Source of the DNA: a virus | Taxonomy: Duplodnaviria > Caudoviricetes | IMG/VR virus record: IMGVR_UViG_3300022178_000315 | Location: 1 to 24,002 of that record | DNA length: 24,002 bases | Direction: 5' to 3' (one strand) | In this document: piece after piece, positions 1,972 to 15,900 of the stretch | How the letters are laid out: each line of letters begins with the position of its first letter | Position numbering within the stretch: the first letter of the stretch is position 1 | Made by a program: the position numbers and the translations under genes | Notes under the pieces: generated by a model | Seen by the model: only the letters and a program-made list of their open reading frames with translations | What the model was told of the DNA's origin: nothing | Database searches by the model: none

Positions 1972-2576
1972 TGAATAGTATTTATCAGTTTATAATAAAA
2001 CCGATAGGCGAAAGATATAATAATGAGTTGAACGTTGGTGATAAAAAGCTAATTATCAACTCTAGTATCTCTAGTCATAAATTTGTTAATAGAAAAGCAG
2101 AAGTAGTTGCTGTGCCTTTAGCGTTTGAAACAGAACTAAAAAAAGGTGATAAAGTTATTGTGCATCATAATTTATTTAGAAGATATTATAATCAAAAAGG
2201 TAGATCTGTAAATAGCGGAAAATACTTTAAAGATGATATGTATTTTGCTTCTGAAGATCAGATATACATGAAACAGGTTAATAACAGCTGGAAGACAGTC
2301 AAAGACTATTGCTTCGTCAAGCCAGTTGTTGATAAGGACAACTCTAGCTTAAGCAAACTAAAAGAGCGCGTTGGTATAGTAAAATACGGAAACAACGTCT
2401 TAGAAGCTCTTAAAATCAATAAAGGGGATTTAGTTGGATTTAAAAAGAACAGAGAATTTGAGTTCTTGATAGATGGTGAAATACTTTATTGCATGGAATC
2501 AAATGATATTTTAATTAAATATGAAAATAAAGGAAACGAAACTGAATATAATCCAAGCTGGGCAAATAGCAGTTGA
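1971..2576 (+). CDS. Co-chaperonin GroES/Cpn10-like protein with two tandem GroES-like domains
   Basis: Two copies of the Cpn10 pattern: FIIKP...KAEVVAVP...LKKGDKVIV...ASEDQIY and YCFVKP...VGIVKYG...INKGDLVGF...EFLIDGEILYCMESNDIL. Confidence 0.7.
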   Translation: MNSIYQFIIKPIGERYNNELNVGDKKLIINSSISSHKFVNRKAEVVAVPLAFETELKKGDKVIVHHNLFRRYYNQKGRSVNSGKYFKDDMYFASEDQIYMKQVNNSWKTVKDYCFVKPVVDKDNSSLSKLKERVGIVKYGNNVLEALKINKGDLVGFKKNREFEFLIDGEILYCMESNDILIKYENKGNETEYNPSWANSS

Positions 2577-2799
2577 AGAACTTATAAAGGTGGCAAAAGA
2601 AAAGATCGTTGACTCAGAAGATGATATCTCTGCTGACAGACTTAAAAACGCTGCCGCTACAAAGAAACTTGCTATATTTGATGCTTTTGAAATATTAGCT
2701 AGAATAGAATCAGAAGAAGATCTTTTAAACGATAAACCAAAAACTAGCGCTATTAAAGCCGAAGAGTTTAAAGGTTTTGCAGAAGGAAGATCTAGATAA
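2521..2799 (+). CDS. Probable terminase small subunit
   Basis: 92-aa helical protein directly upstream of TerL and coupled to it by TAATG; overlaps the GroES-like gene by 56 nt. Function is inferred from position only. Confidence 0.5.
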   Translation: MKIKETKLNIIQAGQIAVEELIKVAKEKIVDSEDDISADRLKNAAATKKLAIFDAFEILARIESEEDLLNDKPKTSAIKAEEFKGFAEGRSR

Positions 2800-5015
2800 T
2801 GTATAAGCAAAATCTATACCATATAGTAGAAGACCATATAAAGTCAAACGTTCTAAGTAGAATGAATAGGCTTAAAAAATGGGAATACGGATACAATAAA
2901 GAGCATGACATAGTTGTCATAAGCAAAACAGGACAAATAGGAGAGATATATAGTATACAAAATCTATTAATAGCTCTTCCGTTGGCTGAAGACGTGTACA
3001 AGTGTTCTAAGAAGAAAGAAGAACAACGTTGGAAAGTTTTAGAATATCCATCTGAATTAAATAAAATAAAAACAGTTTATGATTGGAACGAAAGACCAGT
3101 CGAGTTTAAAGAAAAATGGTACGAGTACATTAACAAAGAGTTTGTTCGTCGCGAAGAAGGCTATTGGTTCTATAGCAACGGCGTTCCTACTTATATTACT
3201 GGTTCTCAGTACATGTACCTGCAGTGGACTAAAATTGACGTGGGGTCAGCAGATTTTCGCGAGTCAAACAGGTTATTCTACATATTCTGGGAGGCTTGTA
3301 AATCGGACAGTAGGTGTTACGGAATGTGCTATCTTAAGAACAGACGGTCTGGATTTAGTTTCATGGCATCATCCGACACAGTTAACCAGGCAACAATTTC
3401 AAGAGATGCTAGGTTTGGAATACTCTCCAAGTCTGGAGCTGATGCTAAGAAAATGTTCACTGATAAAGTTGTACCCATATCGATTAACTACCCCTTCTTT
3501 TTTAAACCAATACAGGACGGAATGGAACGTCCAAAGACAGAATTATCATACAAAGTACCTTCGAAAAGGCTCACGCGTAATTCCATCAAAGAAACAACGG
3601 AAGATTTACAGGCGGGTCTTGACACCACGATCGACTGGAAGAATACAGGGGACAACTCCTATGATGGAGAAAAACTCAAGCTTCTCGTCCACGATGAATC
3701 GGGTAAATGGGAAAGACCAGATAACATCCTCAACAACTGGAGGGTTACGAAAACAACGTTAAGATTAGGTAGAAAAATAGTAGGTAAGTGCATGATGGGA
3801 TCTACTTCAAACGCATTAGACAAAGGTGGATCAAATTTTAAAAAACTATACGAATCTTCGGACGTCACAAAAAGAAACCGCAACGGACAGACTAGCTCAG
3901 GATTATATAGTTTGTTCGTACCTATGGAGTGGAATTACGAAGGATACATTGATTCTTATGGAATACCTGTATTCGACACTCCAAAAAAACCAATTAAAGG
4001 TATAGATGGTGAAGATATAGATATAGGTGTTATATCACATTGGGAAAATGAAGTAGATGGACTACACGACGACCAAGATGGCTTAAACGAATACTATAGA
4101 CAGTTTCCAAGAACAGAGAAACACGCTTTTAGAGACGAAGCTAAAGAATCTTTGTTTAACTTAGGTAAAATATACGAGCAAATAGACTATAATGAAGACT
4201 TACGTAATACTAATGTTGTTACACAGGGTAATTTTCAGTGGGAAGGTGGGATTAAAGATACTAGAGTGCTGTTTGTTCCTAGTAAAAGTGGAAGATTTTT
4301 TGTTAGCTGGGTTCCTCCGGTTACACTACAAAATAGATACAATATAAAAAATAACGTTAAGTATCCTGGTAATGAGCACTGTGGAGCTTTTGGATGCGAT
4401 AGTTACGATATATCTGGTACTGTTGATGGTAAAGGTTCTAAAGGATCTTTACATGGATTAACTAAGTTTTCAATGGAAGACGTACCGCCTAACTTATTTT
4501 TTTTAGAATATATAGCTAGACCACAGACAGCTGATATATTTTTTGAAGATGTTTTAATGGCTTTGGTTTTTTATGGTATGCCTATACTAGCAGAGAACAA
4601 CAAGCCAAGACTCTTATATTATATGAAAAGAAGAGGTTACAGAGGTTACTCTATGAATAGACCTGATAGGGTTATGCATAAATTATCTGTAACAGAAAGA
4701 GAGATAGGTGGAATACCTAACTCAAGTGAAGACATAAAGCAAGCTCACGCAGCAGCTATAGAGGATTATATAGAAAACCACATTGGTTTACTAAACGAAG
4801 GTTATGGCAGCATGTACTTTCAAAGAACTTTAGAAGATTGGGCGAAATTTAATATAAACAATAGGACTAAGCACGATGCATCTATAAGCTCTGGTTTAGC
4901 TATGATGGCTTGTAATAAACATAGATACACGCCTGTCGCGCAAAGAGTAATATCTAAAGTATCTTTAGGTTTTAGAAAATATAACAATTCAGGTCAAAAT
5001 TCAAAAATAATATAA
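2799..5015 (+). CDS. terL: Terminase large subunit
   Basis: 738 aa with Walker A-like YLKNRRSGFS, Walker B LKLLVHDESGKW, coupling motif GSTSN, and RNase H-type nuclease motifs AFGCDSYD and KHDASISSGL; lies immediately upstream of the portal. Confidence 0.93.
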   Translation: MYKQNLYHIVEDHIKSNVLSRMNRLKKWEYGYNKEHDIVVISKTGQIGEIYSIQNLLIALPLAEDVYKCSKKKEEQRWKVLEYPSELNKIKTVYDWNERPVEFKEKWYEYINKEFVRREEGYWFYSNGVPTYITGSQYMYLQWTKIDVGSADFRESNRLFYIFWEACKSDSRCYGMCYLKNRRSGFSFMASSDTVNQATISRDARFGILSKSGADAKKMFTDKVVPISINYPFFFKPIQDGMERPKTELSYKVPSKRLTRNSIKETTEDLQAGLDTTIDWKNTGDNSYDGEKLKLLVHDESGKWERPDNILNNWRVTKTTLRLGRKIVGKCMMGSTSNALDKGGSNFKKLYESSDVTKRNRNGQTSSGLYSLFVPMEWNYEGYIDSYGIPVFDTPKKPIKGIDGEDIDIGVISHWENEVDGLHDDQDGLNEYYRQFPRTEKHAFRDEAKESLFNLGKIYEQIDYNEDLRNTNVVTQGNFQWEGGIKDTRVLFVPSKSGRFFVSWVPPVTLQNRYNIKNNVKYPGNEHCGAFGCDSYDISGTVDGKGSKGSLHGLTKFSMEDVPPNLFFLEYIARPQTADIFFEDVLMALVFYGMPILAENNKPRLLYYMKRRGYRGYSMNRPDRVMHKLSVTEREIGGIPNSSEDIKQAHAAAIEDYIENHIGLLNEGYGSMYFQRTLEDWAKFNINNRTKHDASISSGLAMMACNKHRYTPVAQRVISKVSLGFRKYNNSGQNSKII
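3079..3762 (+). CDS. Candidate overprinted gene (+1 frame of terL), lipoprotein-like
   Basis: 227 open codons in the +1 frame. Contains a KKAIGSIATAFLLILLVLST-C signal/lipobox-like segment (alternative TTG start at 3142) and an R/S/T-rich tail; the region is locally richer in C/G. Confidence 0.45.
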   Translation: MIGTKDQSSLKKNGTSTLTKSLFVAKKAIGSIATAFLLILLVLSTCTCSGLKLTWGQQIFASQTGYSTYSGRLVNRTVGVTECAILRTDGLDLVSWHHPTQLTRQQFQEMLGLEYSPSLELMLRKCSLIKLYPYRLTTPSFLNQYRTEWNVQRQNYHTKYLRKGSRVIPSKKQRKIYRRVLTPRSTGRIQGTTPMMEKNSSFSSTMNRVNGKDQITSSTTGGLRKQR

Positions 5016-5018
5016 TAA

Positions 5019-7427
5019 ATGGTCTACAATACTAATAATAGCATCTTTCCAGATCAGGTGGTACCTGAAGAAGAAAAGAAATCATTTGAATATGGTTTAG
5101 CTGTTGGAAACGCTATTGAACAAGAATGGTTTAGAAATAACAGTGGTCAGGATAGGTTTTCCTATAATTTCCAGAACTTCAATAGACTAAGATTATACGC
5201 TAGAGGTGAACAACCTGTACAGAAGTATAAAGATGAATTATCTAATAACGGTGACTTGTCTTATTTGAATTTAGACTGGAAGCCAATACCGGTTCTTTCT
5301 AAGTTTGTAGATATAGTAGTTAATGGCATGACTGAAAAGGGTTATGAAATGAAAGCTTTTGCTTCAGACCCATTTGCTTTAAAGCAACGTACTGATTTTG
5401 CTGCTAACGCCTTAAGAGACATAGAAAACAAAGAAGCTATAGATAGATTATCTCAAGCTACTGGTCAAAACTTCTATGCTTCTACTGATCCAGAAAACAT
5501 ACCTAGAGACAAAAACGAATTAGACTTAATGCTACAGCTTAACTACAAATTAAGTGTAGAAATAGCTGAAGAAGAGGTTGTTAGCAACGTGCTTAAGTAT
5601 AATAAATTTGATGAAATTAAAAAAAGACTAGCTTATGACCTTACCGTTTTAGGAATTGCAGCTAGTAAAACTAGCTTTAATCTTTCTGAAGGTATAACAA
5701 CTCACTACGTGGATCCAGCTAACTTAGTTTATTCAGCTACAGATGATCCTAATTTTGAAGACATTTATTATGTTGGAGAAATTAAAGCTTTAACTTTGCC
5801 TGAAATAAAAAGATTATTTCCTAATCTAACTAACGAAGAGTTAGAAACTATACAGAAGTATCCAGGTAGACAGAATTACGCTCAAAGCGATTGGCAGGTA
5901 AATAGTGATACAGAGAAACATCAGGTTTTATTTTTTGAATACAAAACGTATCACGATCAAGTGTTTAAAATAAAACAAACTGAACAAGGTTTAGAAAAAA
6001 CATTAGAAAAGCAAGACACATTTAATCCTCCTCCAAGTGATAACTTTGAAAGAGTGTCTAGATCTATTGAAGTATTATATACTGGAGCGAAAGTTTTAGG
6101 TATGGGAGATACTATGTTAGAGTGGAAGTTAGCTGAGAACATGACAAGACCTTACGCTGATACTACTAAGGTTAATATGAATTACTGTATATCAGCTCCT
6201 AGAATGTATCAAGGGCGTATAGAATCTATAGTTAGTAGAACAATAGGTTTCGCTGATATGATTCAATTGACTCATTTAAAGCTACAGCAAGTATTAGCTC
6301 GTATGGTTCCTGATGGAGTTTACTTAGACGTAGACGGGTTAGCTGAAGTTGACTTAGGCAATGGAACGAACTATAATCCAGCAGAAGCATTAAATATGTA
6401 CTTCCAGACCGGAACAATAGTAGGTAGATCATTAACTCAAGATGGCGAGATTAATCGTGGTAAAGTGCCAATTCAAGAGCTTCAAAGTTCTTCTGGTATA
6501 TCTAAAATACAAGCAATGATACAAACGTATCAATACTACTTGCAAATGATTAGAGATGTAACAGGATTAAACGAAGCTAGAGATGGAAGTTCTCCAGATA
6601 AAAACGCTTTAGTAGGTCTACAAAAACTAGCAGCAGCAAACTCTAATACGGCTACAAGACATATATTACAGTCTTTAATGTATATTACGATTAGAACATG
6701 TGAAAATATAAGTTTAAGGGTAGCTGATGTGTTGCAGTTTCCATTAACAAAAGCATCTTTACTTAATAGTATAAATGCTTTTAATGTAGCTACTCTAAAG
6801 GAAATAGATACTCTATCGTTACATGACTTCGGTATATTCTTAGATCTAGAACCAGACGAAGAAGATAAAGCCCAATTAGAAAAAAGCATACAAATAGCAT
6901 TGCAATCTGGAGCTATAAAACTTTCAGATGCTATAGATATAAGAGATATACAAAACATAAAGCTAGCTAATACATATTTGAAGTTTAGACAAACTGAAAA
7001 TCAAGAGGCTGAAAGAGCTGCACAGATGGAAAACATTCAGGCTCAAGCTCAAGCTAATAGTGAATCTGCTGAAAAAGCTGCCGAGGCTGAAGTTCAAAAA
7101 CAACAAGCTTTAGCTCAAACTACTGTTCAAATAGAGCAAGCTAAGTCTCAGTTTGAAATACAACGCATGGAGCAAGAGGCTGAAATAAAAAGAGGTCTAA
7201 TGGCTGAAGAGTTTTCATATCAAATGAAACTAGCAGAAATGCATGCTAAAGCTAATTCTCAAAAAGAAGCTCAAATAGAGGACAGAAAAGACAAAAGACT
7301 ACAAATGCAAGGCACTCAACAGAGTGAACTTATAGATCAAAGACAAAACGATCTGCTACCTAAAAACTTTGAATCAACTAATGACGGCTTAGGCGGTTTT
7401 GATTTAGAACAGTTTACCCCGAGATAG
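5019..7427 (+). CDS. Portal protein (crAss/P22-like podovirus type)
   Basis: 802 aa between TerL and scaffold/MCP, with a long Q/E/A-rich C-terminal coiled coil (barrel) and a MIRDVTGLNEARDGS motif typical of such portals. Confidence 0.88.
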   Translation: MVYNTNNSIFPDQVVPEEEKKSFEYGLAVGNAIEQEWFRNNSGQDRFSYNFQNFNRLRLYARGEQPVQKYKDELSNNGDLSYLNLDWKPIPVLSKFVDIVVNGMTEKGYEMKAFASDPFALKQRTDFAANALRDIENKEAIDRLSQATGQNFYASTDPENIPRDKNELDLMLQLNYKLSVEIAEEEVVSNVLKYNKFDEIKKRLAYDLTVLGIAASKTSFNLSEGITTHYVDPANLVYSATDDPNFEDIYYVGEIKALTLPEIKRLFPNLTNEELETIQKYPGRQNYAQSDWQVNSDTEKHQVLFFEYKTYHDQVFKIKQTEQGLEKTLEKQDTFNPPPSDNFERVSRSIEVLYTGAKVLGMGDTMLEWKLAENMTRPYADTTKVNMNYCISAPRMYQGRIESIVSRTIGFADMIQLTHLKLQQVLARMVPDGVYLDVDGLAEVDLGNGTNYNPAEALNMYFQTGTIVGRSLTQDGEINRGKVPIQELQSSSGISKIQAMIQTYQYYLQMIRDVTGLNEARDGSSPDKNALVGLQKLAAANSNTATRHILQSLMYITIRTCENISLRVADVLQFPLTKASLLNSINAFNVATLKEIDTLSLHDFGIFLDLEPDEEDKAQLEKSIQIALQSGAIKLSDAIDIRDIQNIKLANTYLKFRQTENQEAERAAQMENIQAQAQANSESAEKAAEAEVQKQQALAQTTVQIEQAKSQFEIQRMEQEAEIKRGLMAEEFSYQMKLAEMHAKANSQKEAQIEDRKDKRLQMQGTQQSELIDQRQNDLLPKNFESTNDGLGGFDLEQFTPR

Positions 7428-7456
7428 GGAATTATTAATTTTTATTATATTATATT

Positions 7457-8665
7457 ATGTCAGAAACAAAAGAAGTAAAATCAGAAGGAGAATTTAAATT
7501 AAAAAAGAAAACTTCAAAAATGAAAGGCCAAGGAAATGTTGTTCCTGAGGTTACTAAGATAGATTTAAGTAAAAAAACAGAAGAAGATGCCATTCAAGTC
7601 GGAGAAACAGAAACAGTGGTTGATGATAAACAAACCAGAGATTTACCAGAAATGGAAAAAGAAGTACGGAGCGACTCCAGTGAAGTTACTAAAATTGATC
7701 TCAAAGAAAAAATAGAATCACCTTTAGAATTAGTAGAAGATGAAAACGATAACCCTGAAGAGGTCACAATGGTTGGAGGCACTGAAGGTCCCGACACCCC
7801 ACAGGAACAAAAAGAAGTATTACCGCAAGCTCAAACACAAGACTACCCAGAAAATGTAGATAAACTTATTGAGTTTATGAAAGAAACTGGCGGAACTATT
7901 GACGACTACGCTAGGCTTAATGCTGATTATAGCGACGTTGACGGAGAAGCATTATTAAAAGAATATTACAAACAAGCTAAACCACATTTAAATTCAGAAG
8001 AAATTGACTTCGTAATTGAAGACTCTTTTAGTTTTGATGAGGATTTAGACGAAGCAAGAGATATTCGAAAGAAGAAACTTGCATATAAAGAAGAAGTTGC
8101 AAAAGCCAAAAGCTATTTGGAATCGCTTAAGGATAAATATTACGCAGAGATCAAGTTGAGACCTGGGGTTAATCCTGAGCAACAAAAAGCTACAGACTTT
8201 TTTAACCGATACAACGAAGAGCAGGCAGCTACCAAAGTTAACCAAGACAGATTTATTAGCCAAACAGACGAGCTTCTTAACAACGATTTCAAAGGTTTTG
8301 ATTTTAAAGTTGGAGAGAAAAAGTTTAGATATGGCATTAAAGATCCAGTTAAGGTTGCAGATAATCAAAAAGACATTTCCACGTTCATCAAGACGTTCTT
8401 GAATGACAAAGGAGAAGTCGTAGATACAAAAGGTTATCATAAAGCTTTGTATGCAGCGCGAAACGCAGATACTATTGCACAACACTTTTATGAGCAAGGA
8501 AAAACAGACGCCATAAAAGGACAGATTGCTAAGGACAAGAATATAACTACAGAACCTAGAAAAACACAAGATGGTAATGTATTTGTAAATGGATTTAAAG
8601 TAAAAGCTATTAGCGGGCAAGACTCTTCAAAACTTAAAATTAAAACAAGAAAATTTAACAATTAA
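7457..8665 (+). CDS. Capsid scaffolding/assembly protein
   Basis: 402 aa with a very acidic low-complexity N-terminal part, helical C-terminal part and basic C-terminus (KLKIKTRKFNN); located between portal and MCP. Confidence 0.7.
   Translation: MSETKEVKSEGEFKLKKKTSKMKGQGNVVPEVTKIDLSKKTEEDAIQVGETETVVDDKQTRDLPEMEKEVRSDSSEVTKIDLKEKIESPLELVEDENDNPEEVTMVGGTEGPDTPQEQKEVLPQAQTQDYPENVDKLIEFMKETGGTIDDYARLNADYSDVDGEALLKEYYKQAKPHLNSEEIDFVIEDSFSFDEDLDEARDIRKKKLAYKEEVAKAKSYLESLKDKYYAEIKLRPGVNPEQQKATDFFNRYNEEQAATKVNQDRFISQTDELLNNDFKGFDFKVGEKKFRYGIKDPVKVADNQKDISTFIKTFLNDKGEVVDTKGYHKALYAARNADTIAQHFYEQGKTDAIKGQIAKDKNITTEPRKTQDGNVFVNGFKVKAISGQDSSKLKIKTRKFNN
7587..7715 (+). CDS. Nested small basic protein (MPFKS-type), +1 frame within the scaffold gene
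   Basis: ATG 7587 to TAG 7713-7715 gives 42 aa: MPFKSEKQKQWLMINKPEIYQKWKKKYGATPVKLLKLISKKK. This resembles a recurrent small phage protein pattern MPFKSxKQRx(W/Y)...PEIA.(K/R)W. Confidence 0.65.
   Translation: MPFKSEKQKQWLMINKPEIYQKWKKKYGATPVKLLKLISKKK
7740..7859 (+). CDS. Second nested small basic protein, +1 frame within the scaffold gene
   Basis: ATG 7740 to TAG 7857-7859 gives 39 aa: MKTITLKRSQWLEALKVPTPHRNKKKYYRKLKHKTTQKM. Confidence 0.55.
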   Translation: MKTITLKRSQWLEALKVPTPHRNKKKYYRKLKHKTTQKM

Positions 8666-8676
8666 AATTAAAAATT

Positions 8677-10098
8677 ATGGCAATAGCACCTAATTTTGGC
8701 TCGATAGTACCATCGCAGTCACAACAATTATTACAATCGAACTACTTACAGTTCAATAACAGCACGTCTGACTTTGCTCAGCAATATCTACCTGAAATCT
8801 ACGAACAAGAAGTAGAGCGTTACGGAAACAGAACTTTATCTGGATTCTTACGTATGGTTGGAGCTGAAATGCCAATGACGTCGGATCAAGTTATTTGGTC
8901 AGAACAAAATAGATTACACGTTGCTTACGACGGATGTACCAATGATGACGCAAACGGTATTGGAATTCCAGTAGCTGCTGGTATTGTAAACGTTATTTCT
9001 CCCGGCCAAACTATCGTTCTTATGGACGCCGCTGGTGTTGAGTTGAAAGCTGTAGTTACATCTTCAAACCCAGGAACTGGCGCTTTAATCGTAGCCCCTT
9101 ATACTGCTGCTAATACAGCTGCACTTGCTGCGACTGGAATTAAGATATTTGTATACGGTTCTGAATTCAACAAAGGATCTCAAACAACTAACTGGGATGG
9201 AGCTGCTGGAGCAATCACGGGAACTACTAATGTTAGTATTGACCCTACGTTTACTCAATTTAGCAACTCACCAATTATTATTCGTAGCAATTACAGTATC
9301 AATGGATCTGACATGGCTCAAATCGGTTGGGTTGAAGTTGCAACTGAAGACGGAACTTCTGGATACTTATGGTATTTAAAAGCAGAATCTGAAACTCGTT
9401 TACGTTTTGAAGACTACTTAGAAATGAGTGTAGTTGAAGGAGAACTTGCTGCTGCAGGATCTGGAGCTTTAGCTGGAGGATTTAAAGGTACGCAAGGTTT
9501 ATTTGCTGCTGTAGAAGCTAGAGGTAACGTTGAAACTGCATTTAGTGGAGCTAACTTAACTGACTTTGATAATATCTTGAAAAATTTAGATACTCAAGGA
9601 GCGATTGAAGAGAACATGCTTTTCTTAGATCGTACAACTTCATTAGAAATTGATGACATGCTAGCTGGTATTTCTGCAGGAGCAAACGGAGGTACTGCTT
9701 ATGGATTATTTGAAAACTCTGAAGAAATGGCATTAAACTTAGGGTTTAGCGGTTTCCGTAGAGGATCTTACGATTTCTATAAAACAGACTGGAAATATCT
9801 AAATGACGCGTCAACTCGTGGAGCAACAACTGGAATTTCTTCTATTGAAGGAGTATTAGTACCAGCTGGAACTTCTACTGTTTACGATCAAATTTTAGGA
9901 ACTAACATCCGTAGACCATTCTTACACGTGCGATACAGAGCTTCTCAAACAGAAGATCGTCGTATGAAGTCTTGGTTAACTGGATCTGCTGGTGGTGCTT
10001 TCACTTCTAGTTTAGATGCAATGGACGTTAACTTCTTATCTGAAAGATGTTTAGTAGTACAAGCTGCTAACAACTTTGTATTGTTCAAAGGAGCATAA
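8677..10098 (+). CDS. Major capsid protein
   Basis: 473 aa after the scaffold, with highly biased codon use and a following terminator. Motifs QQYLPEIYEQEVERYGNR, GTQGLFAAVEARGN and GFSGFRRGSYDFYKTDWKYLND are typical of capsids of Bacteroidota podoviruses (HK97 fold inferred). Confidence 0.88.
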   Translation: MAIAPNFGSIVPSQSQQLLQSNYLQFNNSTSDFAQQYLPEIYEQEVERYGNRTLSGFLRMVGAEMPMTSDQVIWSEQNRLHVAYDGCTNDDANGIGIPVAAGIVNVISPGQTIVLMDAAGVELKAVVTSSNPGTGALIVAPYTAANTAALAATGIKIFVYGSEFNKGSQTTNWDGAAGAITGTTNVSIDPTFTQFSNSPIIIRSNYSINGSDMAQIGWVEVATEDGTSGYLWYLKAESETRLRFEDYLEMSVVEGELAAAGSGALAGGFKGTQGLFAAVEARGNVETAFSGANLTDFDNILKNLDTQGAIEENMLFLDRTTSLEIDDMLAGISAGANGGTAYGLFENSEEMALNLGFSGFRRGSYDFYKTDWKYLNDASTRGATTGISSIEGVLVPAGTSTVYDQILGTNIRRPFLHVRYRASQTEDRRMKSWLTGSAGGAFTSSLDAMDVNFLSERCLVVQAANNFVLFKGA

Positions 10099-10104
10099 AC
10101 AATT

Positions 10105-10152
10105 GGTAGACTTACCCTCGTTGAATCTACGGGGGTAATTCTTACCTTTATT
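10105..10152 (+). terminator. Rho-independent terminator-like hairpin after MCP
   Basis: Stem TTACCCTCGT (10112-10121) / ACGGGGGTAA (10129-10138, one G-U pair) with a 7-nt loop, an outer imperfect GGTAG/CTTACC extension, and a T-rich tail. Confidence 0.75.
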
Positions 10153-10175
10153 AAACTATTAAATTTTATTATATT

Positions 10176-10940
10176 ATGGCTAAAAAAGAAGTAATTCAAG
10201 ATGTATCTTGGGAAGTTAAAGATAGAACATATCTACTAACCGGGAACAATAAACCGTTGACATTAAAAATTCCATCAAGACACAACACGAGACATGCTCT
10301 GTTGTATTACGATGAAAGCAATAATACGCAGCGTGAAATAAGATATGCAACTAATCAAAACTCACCCTTCAAAGAAGAGCAAGGTGGAGAAGCAACATTA
10401 GGGCATATTGTTTTTAAAGAAGGAAGCTTGTTTGTTCCAAAAAAGAACCAAGTTCTTCAAAAAATATTATCGTTATATCACCCACTAAAAGGAGTTATAT
10501 ACTCTGAATTAGACGTAGTGGAAGAAGCTAAAGATGAACTTTTAGATTTAGAATTAGAAATCGAAGCATTAAACCTAGCTCAGAACATTGATGTAGATCA
10601 AGCTGAAGCTATAATGAGAGTTGAGATTGGATCTAAAGTGTCTGACATGAGTTCTAAGGAGCTTAAAAGAGATTTATTGTTATTCGCTAAGCATAACCCT
10701 AAACTCTTTATTACACTAGCTAATGATGATAACGTACAATTAAGAAATTTTGCAATTAGAGCAACTGAAGCTAAGATAATTAAACTAGCTGATGACCAAA
10801 GAACATTTACTTGGGCTTCTAATGGTAGAAAATTAATGACAGTGCCTTTTGACGAAAACCCATACTCAGCTATGGCGTCGTTCTTCAAGACAGACGAAGG
10901 CATTCAAGTCTTTCAGTCTATAGAGAAAAAGTTCTCTTAA
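10176..10940 (+). CDS. Conserved head-associated protein downstream of MCP
   Basis: 254 aa with a clean ATG and leader; occupies the position of the post-MCP gene in crAss-like modules. Function unknown. Confidence 0.6.
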   Translation: MAKKEVIQDVSWEVKDRTYLLTGNNKPLTLKIPSRHNTRHALLYYDESNNTQREIRYATNQNSPFKEEQGGEATLGHIVFKEGSLFVPKKNQVLQKILSLYHPLKGVIYSELDVVEEAKDELLDLELEIEALNLAQNIDVDQAEAIMRVEIGSKVSDMSSKELKRDLLLFAKHNPKLFITLANDDNVQLRNFAIRATEAKIIKLADDQRTFTWASNGRKLMTVPFDENPYSAMASFFKTDEGIQVFQSIEKKFS

Positions 10941-10955
10941 CATGTAATACTATAA
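10938..10955 (+). promoter_or_regulatory. Candidate phage promoter motif, copy 1 (TAACAtGTAATAcTATAA)
   Basis: 16/18 identical to 17409..17426; both copies lie at gene boundaries upstream of tail genes. Confidence 0.4.
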
Positions 10956-10980
10956 GGGAGGCTAACGCCTCCTTTATTTT
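10952..10980 (+). terminator. Hairpin with T-tract: terminator or 5' leader hairpin
   Basis: ATAAGGGAGGC-TAAC-GCCTCCTTTAT forms an 11-bp stem (one G-U pair) followed by TTT. Confidence 0.75.
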
Positions 10981-10994
10981 AATAATAATAACAA

Positions 10995-11744
10995 ATGGCT
11001 ATAAACGTAAATACAGTATATCAAACTGTTTTAATGATACTGAATAAAGAGCAGCGTGGTTATATGACCCCGACTGAGTTCAATACAGTAGCAACACAAG
11101 TACAGTTAGAAATATTTGAAAAATACTTTGATGATCTTAATCAGCAACTACGTGTTCCTCAAGCGGATACAGATTATGCCGATAGACAAGAAAACATCGA
11201 TGAAAAATTAGCTATTTTTAAAACATTCGGCGACGCGATATACACTGCAATTGGTGGCCTTTCGTATTTTGTACTACCCACATCAGACACTTACGGTGAT
11301 GTTGTTTCTTTTTACAGACTAGGTAACGTGCTTTATAACGACGAAAAGGTTGTTCAAAGACTCGATAGACATGAGTTCTATTATGCTAATCAGTCTAGAC
11401 TTACAAAACCAAGCACTATAAATCCAGCTTATCTTTATGAAAACCAAAAGCTTTTTATAAAACCAACAACTATAACAGATAAAATAAAAGTAGACTATAT
11501 AAGAAAACCTAATGATATAGTATGGGGATTTACTCCAGGCTCTGTGGGTCAATACGTGTGGAATAATACGCCTTACTCTTTAAGTAACCCAACGGGATCT
11601 ACTAATTTTGAGATACACGAATCAGAACAAACTGAAGTTATATTAAAAATATTGTTATATTCTGGTATCATAATAAGAGATCCTGAAGTAGTACAAACAG
11701 CTGCTGCTTTAGTACAAGCTGATGAAGCTAATAAAAAAAGTTAA
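10995..11744 (+). CDS. Tail ring / head-tail adaptor protein
   Basis: 249 aa with an N-terminal helical motif (LNKEQRGYMTPTEFN..ATQVQLEIF), a VDYIRKP strand and a C-terminal helix; pattern and position match crAss-like ring proteins. Confidence 0.65.
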   Translation: MAINVNTVYQTVLMILNKEQRGYMTPTEFNTVATQVQLEIFEKYFDDLNQQLRVPQADTDYADRQENIDEKLAIFKTFGDAIYTAIGGLSYFVLPTSDTYGDVVSFYRLGNVLYNDEKVVQRLDRHEFYYANQSRLTKPSTINPAYLYENQKLFIKPTTITDKIKVDYIRKPNDIVWGFTPGSVGQYVWNNTPYSLSNPTGSTNFEIHESEQTEVILKILLYSGIIIRDPEVVQTAAALVQADEANKKS

Positions 11745-11747
11745 ACA

Positions 11748-12974
11748 ATGGCTATACCTAATAACGGTTTAATAACCGAAACTAATGCGCAATATTATTC
11801 TGGTTCTCAAACTTTTGAAGCGCCTATAGTAAACTCTACTATAAAAGCTACTTTTGATACTGATTTAATTTTTGGTAGTTACGATCCAACAACTGCTGGA
11901 TATAATTTAAACAATTTTAAATTATATGTGAGTCAACTAGGAATTCCTGGTAGTTTCATAGAGTACACTTCGTCTTATACAGTTTCAAATAACGTAATAA
12001 CTTTAAACACTCCTCCACAACCTAACGAGTGGTTTGTAATTCAGCTGCTTAGCCAATACGGAGGTGAATACGGAAACAGAGACGCGTATGGCGACGCTGT
12101 AGAGGATAATTATGGAGGCTACGCTTACACTACTTTAGAAGATGTTATAACTAACTTCATGATAGGTTACGTTGGAGCTGGCAAATTGATACCTAGCGCT
12201 AAAACAACAGATGTAATGTTTTTTGCTAAAAGAGGACTTCAAGAGTTTAGCTATGATACGTTAAAAAGCATAAGATCTCAAGAATTAAATATTCCTGCTA
12301 ATCTTAGCATACCGCTTCCTCAAGATTATGTTAACTACGTAAACGTATCTTGGATTGATAGTCAGGGAGTTAAACATGTTATATATCCAACCACTTTAAC
12401 TACTAATCCCTATGAAACACCTAGTCAAGATACTCAAGGCATAGCAATACAAGACAACATAGGTGAGAACATAGACACTACTTCTACAACAGAAAATCGA
12501 TGGGCTACTAATAACTCAGAGCAGGTTAATGCAGCTCAAAGCAACCTTACTGGTATGTTATTGTCGGATGGTCTAGGTTACCCAGGAATGTATGGAGATA
12601 ATTATATTGGCCAAAGATATGGCTTACAACCTGAAACATCTCAAGTTAATGGTTGGTTTACTATAAACGAAAAAAACGGTAAAATGTCTTTTTCTAGTGA
12701 TCTTGCTGATAAACTTATAGTGTTAGAATACATATCAGACGGATTAGGATATGATGCTGATATGAAGATACCTAAATTAGCAGAAGAAGCTTTGTATGCT
12801 CATATAAGTCATGCAATTATAGCATCTAGAATTAATCAGCCTGAGTATGTTGTGCAGAGATTAAAACGAGAAAGAACCGCTAAGCTTAGAAACGCTAAGA
12901 TTAGATTGTCAAATATAAAATTAAATGAGTTTGTTCAGATTGCTAGAGGTAAATCTAAATGGATTAAATACTAA
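11748..12974 (+). CDS. Tail ring / tail tubular (P22 gp4-like) protein with an N-terminal beta insertion
   Basis: 408 aa with LPQDYVNYVNVSW, IVLEYISDG and IPKLAEEALYAHI motifs typical of podovirus adaptor/tubular proteins. Confidence 0.65.
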   Translation: MAIPNNGLITETNAQYYSGSQTFEAPIVNSTIKATFDTDLIFGSYDPTTAGYNLNNFKLYVSQLGIPGSFIEYTSSYTVSNNVITLNTPPQPNEWFVIQLLSQYGGEYGNRDAYGDAVEDNYGGYAYTTLEDVITNFMIGYVGAGKLIPSAKTTDVMFFAKRGLQEFSYDTLKSIRSQELNIPANLSIPLPQDYVNYVNVSWIDSQGVKHVIYPTTLTTNPYETPSQDTQGIAIQDNIGENIDTTSTTENRWATNNSEQVNAAQSNLTGMLLSDGLGYPGMYGDNYIGQRYGLQPETSQVNGWFTINEKNGKMSFSSDLADKLIVLEYISDGLGYDADMKIPKLAEEALYAHISHAIIASRINQPEYVVQRLKRERTAKLRNAKIRLSNIKLNEFVQIARGKSKWIKY

Positions 12975-12979
12975 ATTGA

Positions 12980-15900
12980 ATGGCTGAAGTTAAAAATGCT
13001 TTTATAAAGTCTAAAATGAATAAAGACCTAGATAGTAGATTATTACCATCTGGCGAATATCGAGACGGACAAAATATACAAGTTAGTGAATCAGAAGGCG
13101 AAGACGTAGGTGCTTTAGAGAACGCATTAGGTAACACTTTAGCTGTTGATTTTAATCAACTTGCTGTAACTTTTTTAAACGACCCAAGCATAACTAGTTT
13201 AGATTTAAAATCTATTGGCATGCATACAGATACTGCAACTAGCACTGTATTTGTGTTTTTAACTGATTATAATGATCAAGACTACGCTTCGACCGGCATA
13301 TCAACATATAGTCCTTCAGCTAACAACTTTATATACGCATACAACACCACAACGAAACAAAATCCAACTCTTTTGGTTTACGGTTCGTTCTTAAATTTTT
13401 CTCAATCATCGCCAATACACGGTATTAATCTGTTAGAAACTTTACTTTTTTGGACAGACAATAGAAATCAACCACGTAAAATAAACTGGCAAATAGCTGA
13501 CGGCGTTTATTATAGTACAGAAGATAAAATGTCTGTAGCTAAGTACAACCCATACCAGCCTATACACATGTACTACACTAGTGGGTCTGGTTCTTACACT
13601 TCAATGCAAGATGTTGTTTCTCCTACACTTCCAGATGGAACAGCTAATCCTTTTTTAAATGCACCTCAAGGTAATCAAATATTAGATCAAAATGGCGTAG
13701 CAGCTGCTTGGCCTGGAGATCCTGATTATTTAACACCCAAGTTTGCTAGATTTAGCTATAGATTTAAATTTAATGACGGTGAATATTCTATAATGGCTCC
13801 TTTTACTCAACCAGCTTTTATACCTAAGCAAGATGGTTACTTTTTAGCATCGGACGAGGATGAAGCTTTCAGAAGCTCTATAGTTAGATTTATGCAGAAT
13901 AAAGTTAATAATGTAGCTTTATATATTCCGCTTCCTTTTGCCGCTAATAGCTTATACACTAATCTCGATGTCGCTGAAATAGATATACTTTACAAAGAGT
14001 CAGATGCTTTAAGTGTTAAAATTCTAGAATCTATAAGCTCAAATGTTTTTTCAACAAATCCAGATGACTCTGTTAACACTTCTTCTGTGTATACGTATCA
14101 ATACCAATCTAGAAAACCTTACAAAACTTTACCTGAAGCGGAGATAATTAGAGTGTTTGATAGAGTTCCTGTAAAAGCTTTAGGTCAGGAGGTTATAGGC
14201 AATAGAATTGTTTACAGTAATTTTCAAGACAAACATACGCCACCAGCTTCTATTAATTATAACGTTGCTGCTAATCAAAAATACACATTCAACAATAACA
14301 CTAATAACACTTTAAGGTATACTAGCGAAGTAGAATATCCTATGCATACTTTAAAGCAAAATAGAAGTTATCAAGTTGGGTTCGTGTTATCAGATAGATA
14401 TGGTAGACAATCTACTGTGGTTTTATCTCCAGTAGGTAACAAAAAGAACGAGGTGTTTGTTGAGGGTGGTATAACCTACTCGGGTTCAACCTTTTACAAC
14501 CCTTACAAAGCTGATCCAGGTACAGGAAATAACAATATAGATTCTTGGTCTGGCGATTCTTTGAAAATAATAATAGATGGTCGAATACCAGCCAACATAG
14601 AAGGTGCTGGATATCCTGGCCTTTATAATGGCGACGCAAATAGCGCTGACTATAATCCTTTAGGTTGGTACTCTTACAAAGTTGTTGTTAAGCAGACAGA
14701 GCAAGATTACTACAATGTTTACTTGCCTGGAATATTAGATGGTTATCCTGATTTTGGATCTCAACAAACTCCTCCAGACGCAGAAAACACTATTGCGCAC
14801 ATAACGCTTATAGGAGATAATATAAACAAAGTACCTAGAGATTTAACAGAAGTTGGTCCAGAGCAAAAGCAATACAGAAGTGATGTTAAGCTTTTTGGTA
14901 GAGTTTCTCCTGAAAGAGCAACCGCACCCGTATTTAATGTTCCGTATTATCCTCAAACAAACTATCAAGAGCCTGTAGCTATCGCAGAACAAGATTATAT
15001 ATTTGCTGACGCTACTACCGACGCACCTTATGGAACTGTATATCAATCTGATTCAGATCCTTATATAGCTAGATTAACTCAAGGTAATGTGTCAACAGTT
15101 GCTGGATCTAGTTTACCTCTACCTATAGGATCTTTACAGACAACTGGTAATCCAGGAGCTACATATCCTATACTTTTAGGTGTATTTGAAACAGCTCCCG
15201 TAGAGTCTTCAATTGATATATTTTACGAAACATCTACTAGTGGGCTAATATCTGAATATAATGACGCGTCAGACACTGTAGATGCTAGCGGTTATAATGA
15301 CTTTGTTTGGGTTCAAAGTGAAGACACCGTACCCAGCTTAACGCAACCGGTAAGTGGTCCTGATGGATTCTACCCTGTAAAACCAGGTTTAATCCCTGTT
15401 GCAATAATAGATAGCACCTTAGAACTTTCTTCGGTTTCTGTTGCTGGCTTTACCGCTCCTGGTCCAGATGGAAATCCATGGAAAGACAACTGGAGTTTAA
15501 CCGCTAGAGCCGAAGGAGGAACAGGAACTACGCCTATAAGATGGGATTTGAAATGCTTAAACACTTTATACCATCAGCTAGATGATACAAACAACTGGAT
15601 TACTTTTAATATTTCAGTAACAGATAACTCTGCAGGAGGTTCAACTAACGTAATAGTACCTATAGTACGAAAGCTAATAAACGTTAAGCCTTCGTTTACT
15701 TCACCAGGTTCAATTAGTTTTTCAGGTGATAGAAACTTAAATAATCCTATATACACAGCTACAGCTACAAACGGTGTTGCTGTGCCAAATATAACAAATA
15801 CACCTCAAAGCAAAGATTTGAGTTACGAAATAGTTTCTCAAACTCCTGATTTAGGTCCAGGTTTAAATATAACATTAGAACCTAATGAAAACGCAGGTAC

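Follow-up and report, generated by a model that had tools for sequence, protein, structure and literature searches.

Rz1-type genes for outer-membrane spanins (o-spanins) are embedded in Rz, as described for Rz/Rz1 of phage lambda and SO_2972a/b of Shewanella LambdaSo in the excerpted text of bioRxiv 10.1101/2024.01.23.576932. Here we describe an open reading frame (ORF) of 227 codons that is embedded in a different gene, terL, which encodes the terminase large subunit (TerL), in the tailed-phage record IMGVR_UViG_3300022178_000315 of IMG/VR. The window, that is, the whole stretch of DNA that was analysed, is the entire record of 24,002 bases (39% complete by estimate). The ORF starts with ATG and occupies positions 3079 to 3762 (plus strand) in the +1 frame of terL (2799 to 5015, plus strand); it is probably a genuine gene, overprinted on terL, whose product is an exported envelope protein.

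As far as Rz1 is portrayed in those excerpts, the ORF shares with it a lipoprotein-like signal in the +1 frame, a location wholly within another late phage gene, a low-complexity mature part that is predicted to be unstructured, and a likely origin by overprinting. It differs in that the host gene encodes the terminase ATPase instead of an inner-membrane spanin (i-spanin), with no i-spanin partner found; the mature part has ~180 residues and is strongly basic, whereas Rz1 is a short Pro-rich peptide; the lipobox in the window is non-canonical; and there is no sequence similarity. The o-spanins are encoded within, overlapping or beside an i-spanin gene of the lysis cassette; the ORF is embedded in terL, and a crude scan beside the holin and endolysin genes showed no i-spanin-like gene. 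With the unimolecular spanins (u-spanins; phage T1 gp11 type) it shares an N-terminal lipoprotein signal and a possible outer-membrane role in lysis, but its product has no C-terminal transmembrane segment (the grand average of hydropathy (GRAVY) of the tail is approximately −1.3). By the features tested, the ORF is outside every spanin class; by analogy, its product would work like Rz1. Two other phage proteins, T5 Llp and Cor, which we take to be exclusion lipoproteins, are likewise small phage-encoded envelope lipoproteins of an accessory, losable kind; in contrast to the ORF, which is embedded and long, with a product predicted to be disordered and no similarity found, they are free-standing genes for small folded proteins. 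The overprinted viral genes covered by the excerpted text of PMC8227390, like the ORF, lie out of frame in an older gene, are less widely distributed than that gene, have a biased composition and encode products with predicted disorder; unlike those genes in general, the ORF occupies the most conserved enzyme core of a tailed phage, uses two signal-peptide solutions and is repeatedly absent within its clade. The passages returned by a full-text literature search contained no terL-embedded gene of this sort, nor did those returned via Cellulophaga, phage and spanin.

In tailed phages, long overlapping genes on one strand are regarded as rare, and they are suppressed by gene callers. If the ORF is a gene, the marker on which phage phylogeny most often relies contains an unannotated gene of ~200 codons that overlies its Walker-like motifs. 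The locus would then offer a natural series for gene birth by overprinting, with gene-free outgroups, two signal-peptide solutions, varied tail lengths and at least three lineages lacking the gene; also, a second frame would reshape the codon usage of an essential enzyme, which matters for evolutionary analyses that draw on the synonymous sites of terL.

The open +1 frame of terL and its distribution

The +1 frame of terL in the window has 48 stops, a longest open run of 231 codons and a second longest of 62; the +2 frame has 88 stops, a longest open run of 41 and no stop depletion. The TGA that ends the ORF is forced by Cys-Met-Met in TerL. The ORF covers two TerL motifs that we take to be Walker A-like (KNRRSGFS; 3336 to 3359, plus strand) and Walker B-like (LLVHDE; 3681 to 3698, plus strand); in 118 TerL sequences the first is (near-)invariant, and the D and E of the second are invariant. 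A preliminary description of the window, made from the sequence alone, had pointed to an open +1 frame across these motifs and to a segment rich in C and G, and we find both (the GC content in 200-base windows is 0.395–0.44 over 3100–3899 vs 0.29–0.37 in the flanks); it had also listed the ORF as the sole nested ORF on this strand of terL, which is correct for ORFs of at least 60 amino acids, there being two shorter ones (3826 to 4005, 59 amino acids, and 4192 to 4347, 51 amino acids).

We compared the window with its relatives, for which four scans of viral contigs provided 285 loci. The main comparison uses the terL genes with at least 700 open codons (from two of the four scans), the window and two named outgroups, that is, 128 sequences of which 118 are distinct; shorter fragments were excluded. 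The +1 frame is stop-free in 103 of the 118 distinct genes, down to 68% TerL identity. These genes form the clade of the window (T1; 62 sequences with 73–100% TerL identity to the window) and its sister clade (T2; 41 sequences, 68–73%); an ORF-less group contains 14 sequences, including both outgroups, and one sequence is unclassified. In all T1 and T2 genes the frame is open from approximately codon 115 (T1) or codon 94 (T2) of terL, and lineage-specific stops end it at codon 263, 267, 270–274, 293, 311–316, 321 or 323–328. In the outgroups, at 62% and 44% TerL identity, the homologous tract has 10 and 14 stops, respectively, and the G+C content at third codon positions (GC3) is the same inside and outside the tract. 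Stop depletion among terL relatives, which the preliminary description had proposed as a check, is therefore seen in most of them; at least three lineages and both outgroups carry 7–16 stops.

As a conservative control, we exchanged synonymous codons at random between occurrences of the same residue within the tract, a procedure that preserves both the TerL protein and the GC-rich codon pool. Shuffles of the window with the tract's own codon pool have a mean of 5.5 +1 stops and are stop-free in 3 of 20,000 cases; with the codon pool of the whole gene, the mean is 10.5 and none of 4,000 is stop-free. All 11 T1 lineages tested have 0 stops over ~205 codons, for which the shuffle means are 4.3–6.3 (P 0–0.0015); using the whole-gene pool, the means for the same lineages are 8.4–11.0, with 0 of 4,000 stop-free. 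The result is the same for the 12 of 12 T2 lineages tested (shuffle means of 3.6–6.9 stops; P for none ≤0.0011). The tested lineages differ pairwise at 0.35–0.48 of their third positions, so stops have had ample opportunity to arise. Codon composition falls far short of explaining the stop-free +1 frame, and the comparison supports the view that the ORF in the relatives behaves as a selected protein-coding gene.

The third position of a terL codon is the second position of a +1 codon; therefore, each synonymous change at this position in terL alters a +1 residue. The GC3 of terL is ~0.2 outside the overlap; inside, it is 0.45–0.70 in the ORF-bearing lineages and at baseline in the ORF-less lineages. 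The drop is located at each lineage's own +1 stop: GC3 is 0.66 and 0.70 before and 0.25 after the stop for ORFs that end at codon 321 (n = 22), 0.71 and 0.24 for those that end at codon 293 (n = 12), 0.59 and 0.24 at codon 274 (n = 6), and 0.33 and 0.18 at codon 263 (n = 12); in ORF-less genes with the first stop at codon 133 (n = 11), it is 0.17–0.30 throughout. This step persists when only codons that are unable to form a +1 stop are counted. The third bases of the mature region are alike in T1 and T2 (T 0.22, C 0.27, A 0.27, G 0.24), and the baseline is T 0.41, C 0.10, A 0.40, G 0.09; the ORF-less lineages (at least three) and both outgroups have the baseline composition in the homologous tract. 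The synonymous sites of terL carry a second, frame-specific coding signal that reaches to each lineage's +1 stop.

The mature part of the product (3223 to 3759, plus strand) is basic, rich in Ser, Thr, Arg, Pro, Gly and Gln, predicted to be disordered, and fast evolving; its net charge is approximately +19 and its GRAVY −0.87 over terL codons 145–320. The tail rich in Arg, Ser and Thr that had been described from the window is thus apparent in the composition, and its disorder is predicted by AlphaFold2 (predicted local distance difference test (pLDDT) <50). T1 and T2 agree in these properties (Ile, Leu, Val, Phe and Met, 0.21–0.22; Ser, Thr, Pro, Gly and Gln, 0.39–0.40; Arg, 0.13; charge, +18 to +19), and the same frame in the ORF-less lineages has 0.37 Ile, Leu, Val, Phe and Met, a GRAVY of +0.08 and 5.3 stops per 100 codons. 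The synonymous diversity of terL is low over the N-terminal signal (0.19–0.29 in T1 vs 0.44 in ORF-less genes at codons 129–144; 0.11–0.30 in T2 over most of codons 89–144) and no lower than the average of the gene over the mature part, so the synonymous conservation that had been proposed as a second check is present over the signal peptide only, and variability is not reduced overall. Suppression of the synonymous rate over the entire gene, expected if the whole product were conserved, was rejected, as the rate inside the overlap is at least that outside. What selection appears to maintain is the openness of the frame, a Cys-containing export signal at the N-terminus and a composition that is hydrophilic and basic, but no particular mature sequence.

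We built trees from the part of TerL beyond the overlap and from the first and second codon positions within it. In both cases, T1 and the ingroup ORF-less lineages together form the sister group of T2, and the ORF-less lineages are located at three or more separate places among T1. The outgroups lack the gene, and three or more lineages either lost it or never gained it. Read most simply, the gene arose once, after the 62% outgroup had split off, and was later lost at least three times, whereupon GC3 relaxed and 7–16 stops accrued; the number of losses could be lowered by recombination. In keeping with overprinting, the ORF is phylogenetically narrower than terL (present at ≥68% TerL identity and absent in the 62% and 44% outgroups).

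A second open stretch of the +1 frame, with 58–107 codons, is located at 3820–4065 of the window (terL codons 341–422; strongest at approximately 3891–3968). It occurs in T1, T2 and several lineages without the main ORF, and shuffles give weak support for its openness (P 0.001–0.7 for codons 341–406). The synonymous sites of codons 370–390 are very conserved: Tyr370 as TAT, Leu372 ending in G, Phe373 as TTC and Pro375 as CCT, each in 62 of 62 T1 sequences.

A signal-like N-terminus at two positions

The two sister clades keep an N-terminal signal (a basic stretch, a hydrophobic run and a Cys) at different places. In the window, five Lys between positions 5 and 27 are followed by the hydrophobic run AIGSIATAFLLILLVLST (3160 to 3213, plus strand), a candidate signal peptide core or membrane anchor, and then by Cys-Thr-Cys (3214 to 3222, plus strand), in which residues 46 and 48 are candidate lipid-attachment cysteines. 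The same order had been read in the preliminary description from a TTG at 3142, and that reading is correct; the Cys codons are at 3214–3216 and 3220–3222.

The preliminary description had also raised the alternative that the residues of TerL impose this pattern. This is the case for the first Cys, which is forced by Met139-Tyr140 of TerL; it is not the case for the hydrophobic run and the second Cys. The run AIGSIATAFLLILLVLST depends on T at terL third positions: in T1, codons 130–136 nearly all end in T (62/62 at 134 and 136) and give Leu, Ile and Val in the +1 frame; at the same codons the ORF-less lineages have a mixture of T and A, and T2 has bases other than T. The second Cys needs a Leu141 codon that ends in G (otherwise it is Tyr), and this is found in 62/62 T1 sequences vs 4/12 ORF-less sequences. 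Tyr140 ends in C in 61/62 T1 sequences, giving a +1 Thr instead of Ile, and Gln142 ends in G in 51/62; none of the third-base choices at codons 130–136, 140, 141 and 142 is required for stop avoidance. Further upstream, T1 has A as the third base of codons 113, 116, 119 and 120. These choices support the view that the signal-like N-terminus is maintained via the synonymous sites of terL and is not merely forced by TerL residues.

In T2, T at third positions extends over codons 107–122 and is followed by an invariant Gly-Ser-Cys-Ala (Phe124 is TTC and Cys126 is TGC in 41/41); codons 129–137 end in C, G or A and encode a polar stretch, and there is no Cys at 139 or 141. One T2 product begins with MIFKAFQKTLKKNTILTLIVSLLTGMLVIGSC followed by ATV. 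The hydrophobic run and Cys of T1 are ~14 codons further on than those of T2, and the synonymous sites of the two clades have opposite patterns. TerL of the 62% outgroup has both Met-Cys at 125 and Met-Tyr at 139; T2 kept the former and T1 the latter. Using [LVI][ASTVI][GAS]C as the lipobox (a PROSITE-like pattern), we find it in 41/41 T2 sequences (V[IT]GSC) and in 4/62 T1 sequences; the other 58/62 match only if Thr is allowed at −1. In T1, Tyr138-Met139 of TerL restrict the −1 residue to Thr or Ile, and Thr is present in 48/62 vs 2/12 ORF-less sequences.

The candidate start, ATG 3079, follows an A-rich leader that lacks a Shine-Dalgarno sequence (3054 to 3081, plus strand, start codon included); the A fraction of the leader, 0.65, is in the top 1.1% of terL 20-mers, and the leader resembles those of other genes in the window, whose starts also have no Shine-Dalgarno sequences and A/T-rich leaders. 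The position of ATG 3079, codon 94 of terL, is that of an ATG in 38/41 T2 genes. The start favoured in the preliminary description, TTG (3142 to 3144, plus strand), arises from a TerL Phe and a following codon that begins with G, and is present in 27/61 relatives in T1; judged by the T2 start position and the A-rich leader, ATG 3079 is at least as good, and the data do not separate the two. The first Cys is residue 46 from ATG 3079 and residue 25 from TTG 3142; the Cys in T2 is residue 32. A bacterial lipoprotein is expected to have its Cys about 15–35 residues from the start. In T1, ATG is found at codon 108 in 52/61 (codon 94 in the window), and in 59/61 the open frame contains an ATG that precedes the hydrophobic run or coincides with its beginning, in three of them solely at codon 127.

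A possible role in lysis and the alternatives

We propose that ribosomes would initiate internally on the late terL transcript, likely at ATG 3079, and that the product would be exported by Sec and lipidated at Cys46 or Cys48; it would then be a periplasmic envelope protein with a basic, disordered tail of ~180 residues, and could act in the outer-membrane or envelope step of lysis together with the holin encoded upstream of terL. To this function, a substitute for a spanin and not a spanin, we assign somewhat less than an even chance; besides the exclusion role considered below, what is left of our expectation goes to something else.

In 4/4 long ORF-bearing contigs, a holin-family gene (PHROG 3427) precedes terL by 1.3–1.9 kb and has the same orientation; its proximity is a weak argument for a function in lysis. 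The two T2 genomes (98% and 100% complete) have an endolysin gene after the holin gene, and their sole credible canonical lipoprotein is the product of the embedded ORF. An ORF-less contig has instead a separate cassette of a small ORF, an endolysin gene and a gene for a 156-residue protein with the architecture of a u-spanin. Homologues of this u-spanin-like gene (L178:4931-5398) and terL were found together on 13 contigs, and 13/13 are ORF-less, that is, the two genes are mutually exclusive in the one clade in which this could be tested; we regard their complementarity as a lead only. A predicted spanin is reported for only two of the described isolates of flavobacterial phages in the excerpted text of PMC8776804; if the lysis reading is true, the ORF would help explain why spanins are seldom found in these phages. 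More speculatively, and in our estimation rather doubtful as a whole, the ORF may be a de novo lipoprotein gene overprinted on the terminase ATPase core, with its signal peptide reinvented at a second site, that supplies the missing lysis factor for breaching the outer membrane in an abundant clade of aquatic flavobacterial podophages: a one-piece, polycationic, lipid-anchored spanin substitute that was discarded when a u-spanin was gained.

The 156-residue protein itself (L178:4931-5398, minus strand, on contig G004) has a lipoprotein signal (LIAC) and a C-terminal membrane segment; its gene directly follows the endolysin gene (PHROG 17001), and 44 further loci (L183-L226) were found. PHROGs files it under phrog_5885, of unknown function, and it looks like a member of an unannotated family of unimolecular spanins of aquatic phages. 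Separately, a complete T1-type genome (G002, 60214-60876; L167:214-873) encodes a free-standing canonical lipoprotein of 220 residues (VASC followed by GIQKTPPPP) without a PHROG match; its embedded ORF is short and ends at codon 263.

A number of observations weigh against the ORF as an overprinted gene for an exported lysis protein. In T1, synonymous divergence is 0.46–0.49 inside the overlap vs 0.36 outside; because it is not reduced, most of the product is conserved in openness and composition, not in sequence. The basic charge may in part be a side effect of G or C at the second codon position. AlphaFold2, with a 62-sequence alignment, gives no fold (mean pLDDT 41.7), and searches of Pfam, PHROGs and the ESM Atlas found no match for the window ORF or three relatives. 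No single start codon is conserved in T1, and 2/61 have GTG or TTG in place of an ATG. The contigs from RNA libraries mentioned below cover the region but show neither transcription, strand, ends nor translation. The window's lipobox, L-S-T-C, fails the canonical pattern with its Thr at −1, and a Cys at residue 46 from ATG 3079 is unusually far for a lipoprotein signal; the lipoprotein proposed in the preliminary description is thus favoured by the signal-like N-terminus and the T2 lipobox (41/41) and not by the lipobox of the window itself.

The link to lysis is itself weak. The 13 ORF-less contigs with the u-spanin-like gene belong largely to one clade, and at six other ORF-less loci (L231, L236, L244, L256, L258 and L294), for which 7 kb or more of upstream flank is available, no canonical lipoprotein ORF is found there; ORF-bearing loci with similar upstream flanks have none there either. 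A crude scan beside the holin and endolysin genes of G003 and G005 found no i-spanin-like gene. The product does not qualify as a u-spanin: the hydropathy of its C-terminal half is negative throughout, and AlphaFold2 predicts no C-terminal helix.

The main alternative accepts the gene and changes the function: the product would be an envelope lipoprotein for superinfection exclusion or receptor masking, like T5 Llp or Cor. We consider this unlikely overall, though a serious candidate. The accessory character of the ORF, which three or more lineages at separate places in both trees lack, its fast-evolving mature part of variable length (ends from codon 263 to 328) and the fact that no spanin partner was seen all agree with exclusion. 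Exclusion genes are usually early or lysogenic; the ORF is on the late packaging transcript, right downstream of a holin-family gene, and has no sequence similarity to any PHROG family, which argues against this role.

A further possibility, to which we give slightly less weight, is that the gene is real and the T1 product is an uncleaved, non-lipidated signal-anchor membrane protein, e.g., a holin or antiholin accessory. In T1, the −1 residue is Thr (48/62) or Ile (14/62) and never Gly, Ala or Ser, and the canonical lipobox fails in 58/62; the distance of the Cys from ATG 3079 and the AlphaFold2 model, in which residues 4–59 form one long helix and residues 50–227 have pLDDT <50, also suit an anchor. 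However, T2 has a canonical lipobox in every member; Thr is the smallest −1 residue that Tyr-Met of TerL allows and is preferred over Ile relative to the ORF-less sequences; and the second Cys is kept in all T1 sequences purely by synonymous choice.

That there is no gene, and that the frame is open only as a side effect of a tract of high GC3 in terL (which could stem, e.g., from recombination with a relative of higher GC content, from mRNA structure or from optimised codons in the ATPase core), we regard as improbable. In its favour, GC3 is raised also at codons that cannot make stops, and the overall synonymous divergence is unreduced. However, shuffles with the tract's own codon pool still yield 3.6–6.9 stops; the 62% outgroup has a GC3 of 0.42 throughout and yet 10 +1 stops, therefore such a GC3 alone is not what keeps the frame open; the effect is confined to one frame and the tract ends at each lineage's +1 stop; the run of third-position T followed by a Cys, at two different places in two clades, fits the logic of a signal peptide; and TerL protein identity is higher, not lower, within the tract. 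Least probable is programmed ribosomal frameshifting from terL into the +1 frame, with a fusion to the TerL N-terminus: the variable T1 start codon and three database proteins that join the two frames (P0074, P0076 and P0077, more simply explained by single-base assembly indels as the likely cause) would fit, but we rejected it on the grounds that a signal peptide must be N-terminal, that the ATG at codon 94 in T2 is directly followed by the basic stretch, hydrophobic run and lipobox, that +1 stops lie 4–7 codons upstream of this ATG, and that no conserved slippery site is seen by eye.

Host gene, relatives and genomic setting

The product of terL, the older host gene, has 738 residues and matches PHROG 6681 (E = 6e−164); a Pfam search gave no match and a sequence search of the PDB matched no solved structure. 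The cultured phages nearest by TerL are podophages of Flavobacterium, Cellulophaga, Tenacibaculum and Maribacter, all with <60% identity; the listed Flavobacterium phages have ~44% identity, and one uncultured record has 62%. Because the closest cultured TerL relatives are podophages of that group, the host of the window phage is probably a member of the Flavobacteriia.

The window encodes a phage morphogenesis module: a GroES-like gene, an ORF of 92 codons, terL, the portal gene and virion proteins. The GroES-like co-chaperonin gene (PHROG 13932; 1971–2576) is immediately upstream of terL; its 3′ end overlaps, over 56 bases, the 92-residue ORF (2521–2799), which ends at the terL start. Related genomes also encode GroEL and a second GroES.

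A tblastn search with the embedded ORF against 50,697 GenBank phage records gave no match. IMG/VR contains ~4,300 to 14,000 stretches with related terL genes, according to the tool's own estimates. A profile search of 1.84 billion representatives matched the ORF to 154 protein clusters (at 50% identity) that, judged by length and matched range, resemble the same embedded family or its fragments; these matches come without genomic context, and free-standing homologues might be among them. One family member, database protein P0070, is located on a contig of 72.5 Mb and is presumably phage sequence in a large, possibly eukaryotic or chimeric assembly.

Near-identical contigs that cover 2500–4200 of the window were found in four metatranscriptome runs; they have five variants inside the ORF, none of which makes a +1 stop, a sample too small to carry weight. 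Overall, sequence near-identical to window 2500–4200 is found in 20 public runs from 18 studies, labelled as freshwater, seawater, sediment, coral reef and oyster; six of these runs are RNA libraries.

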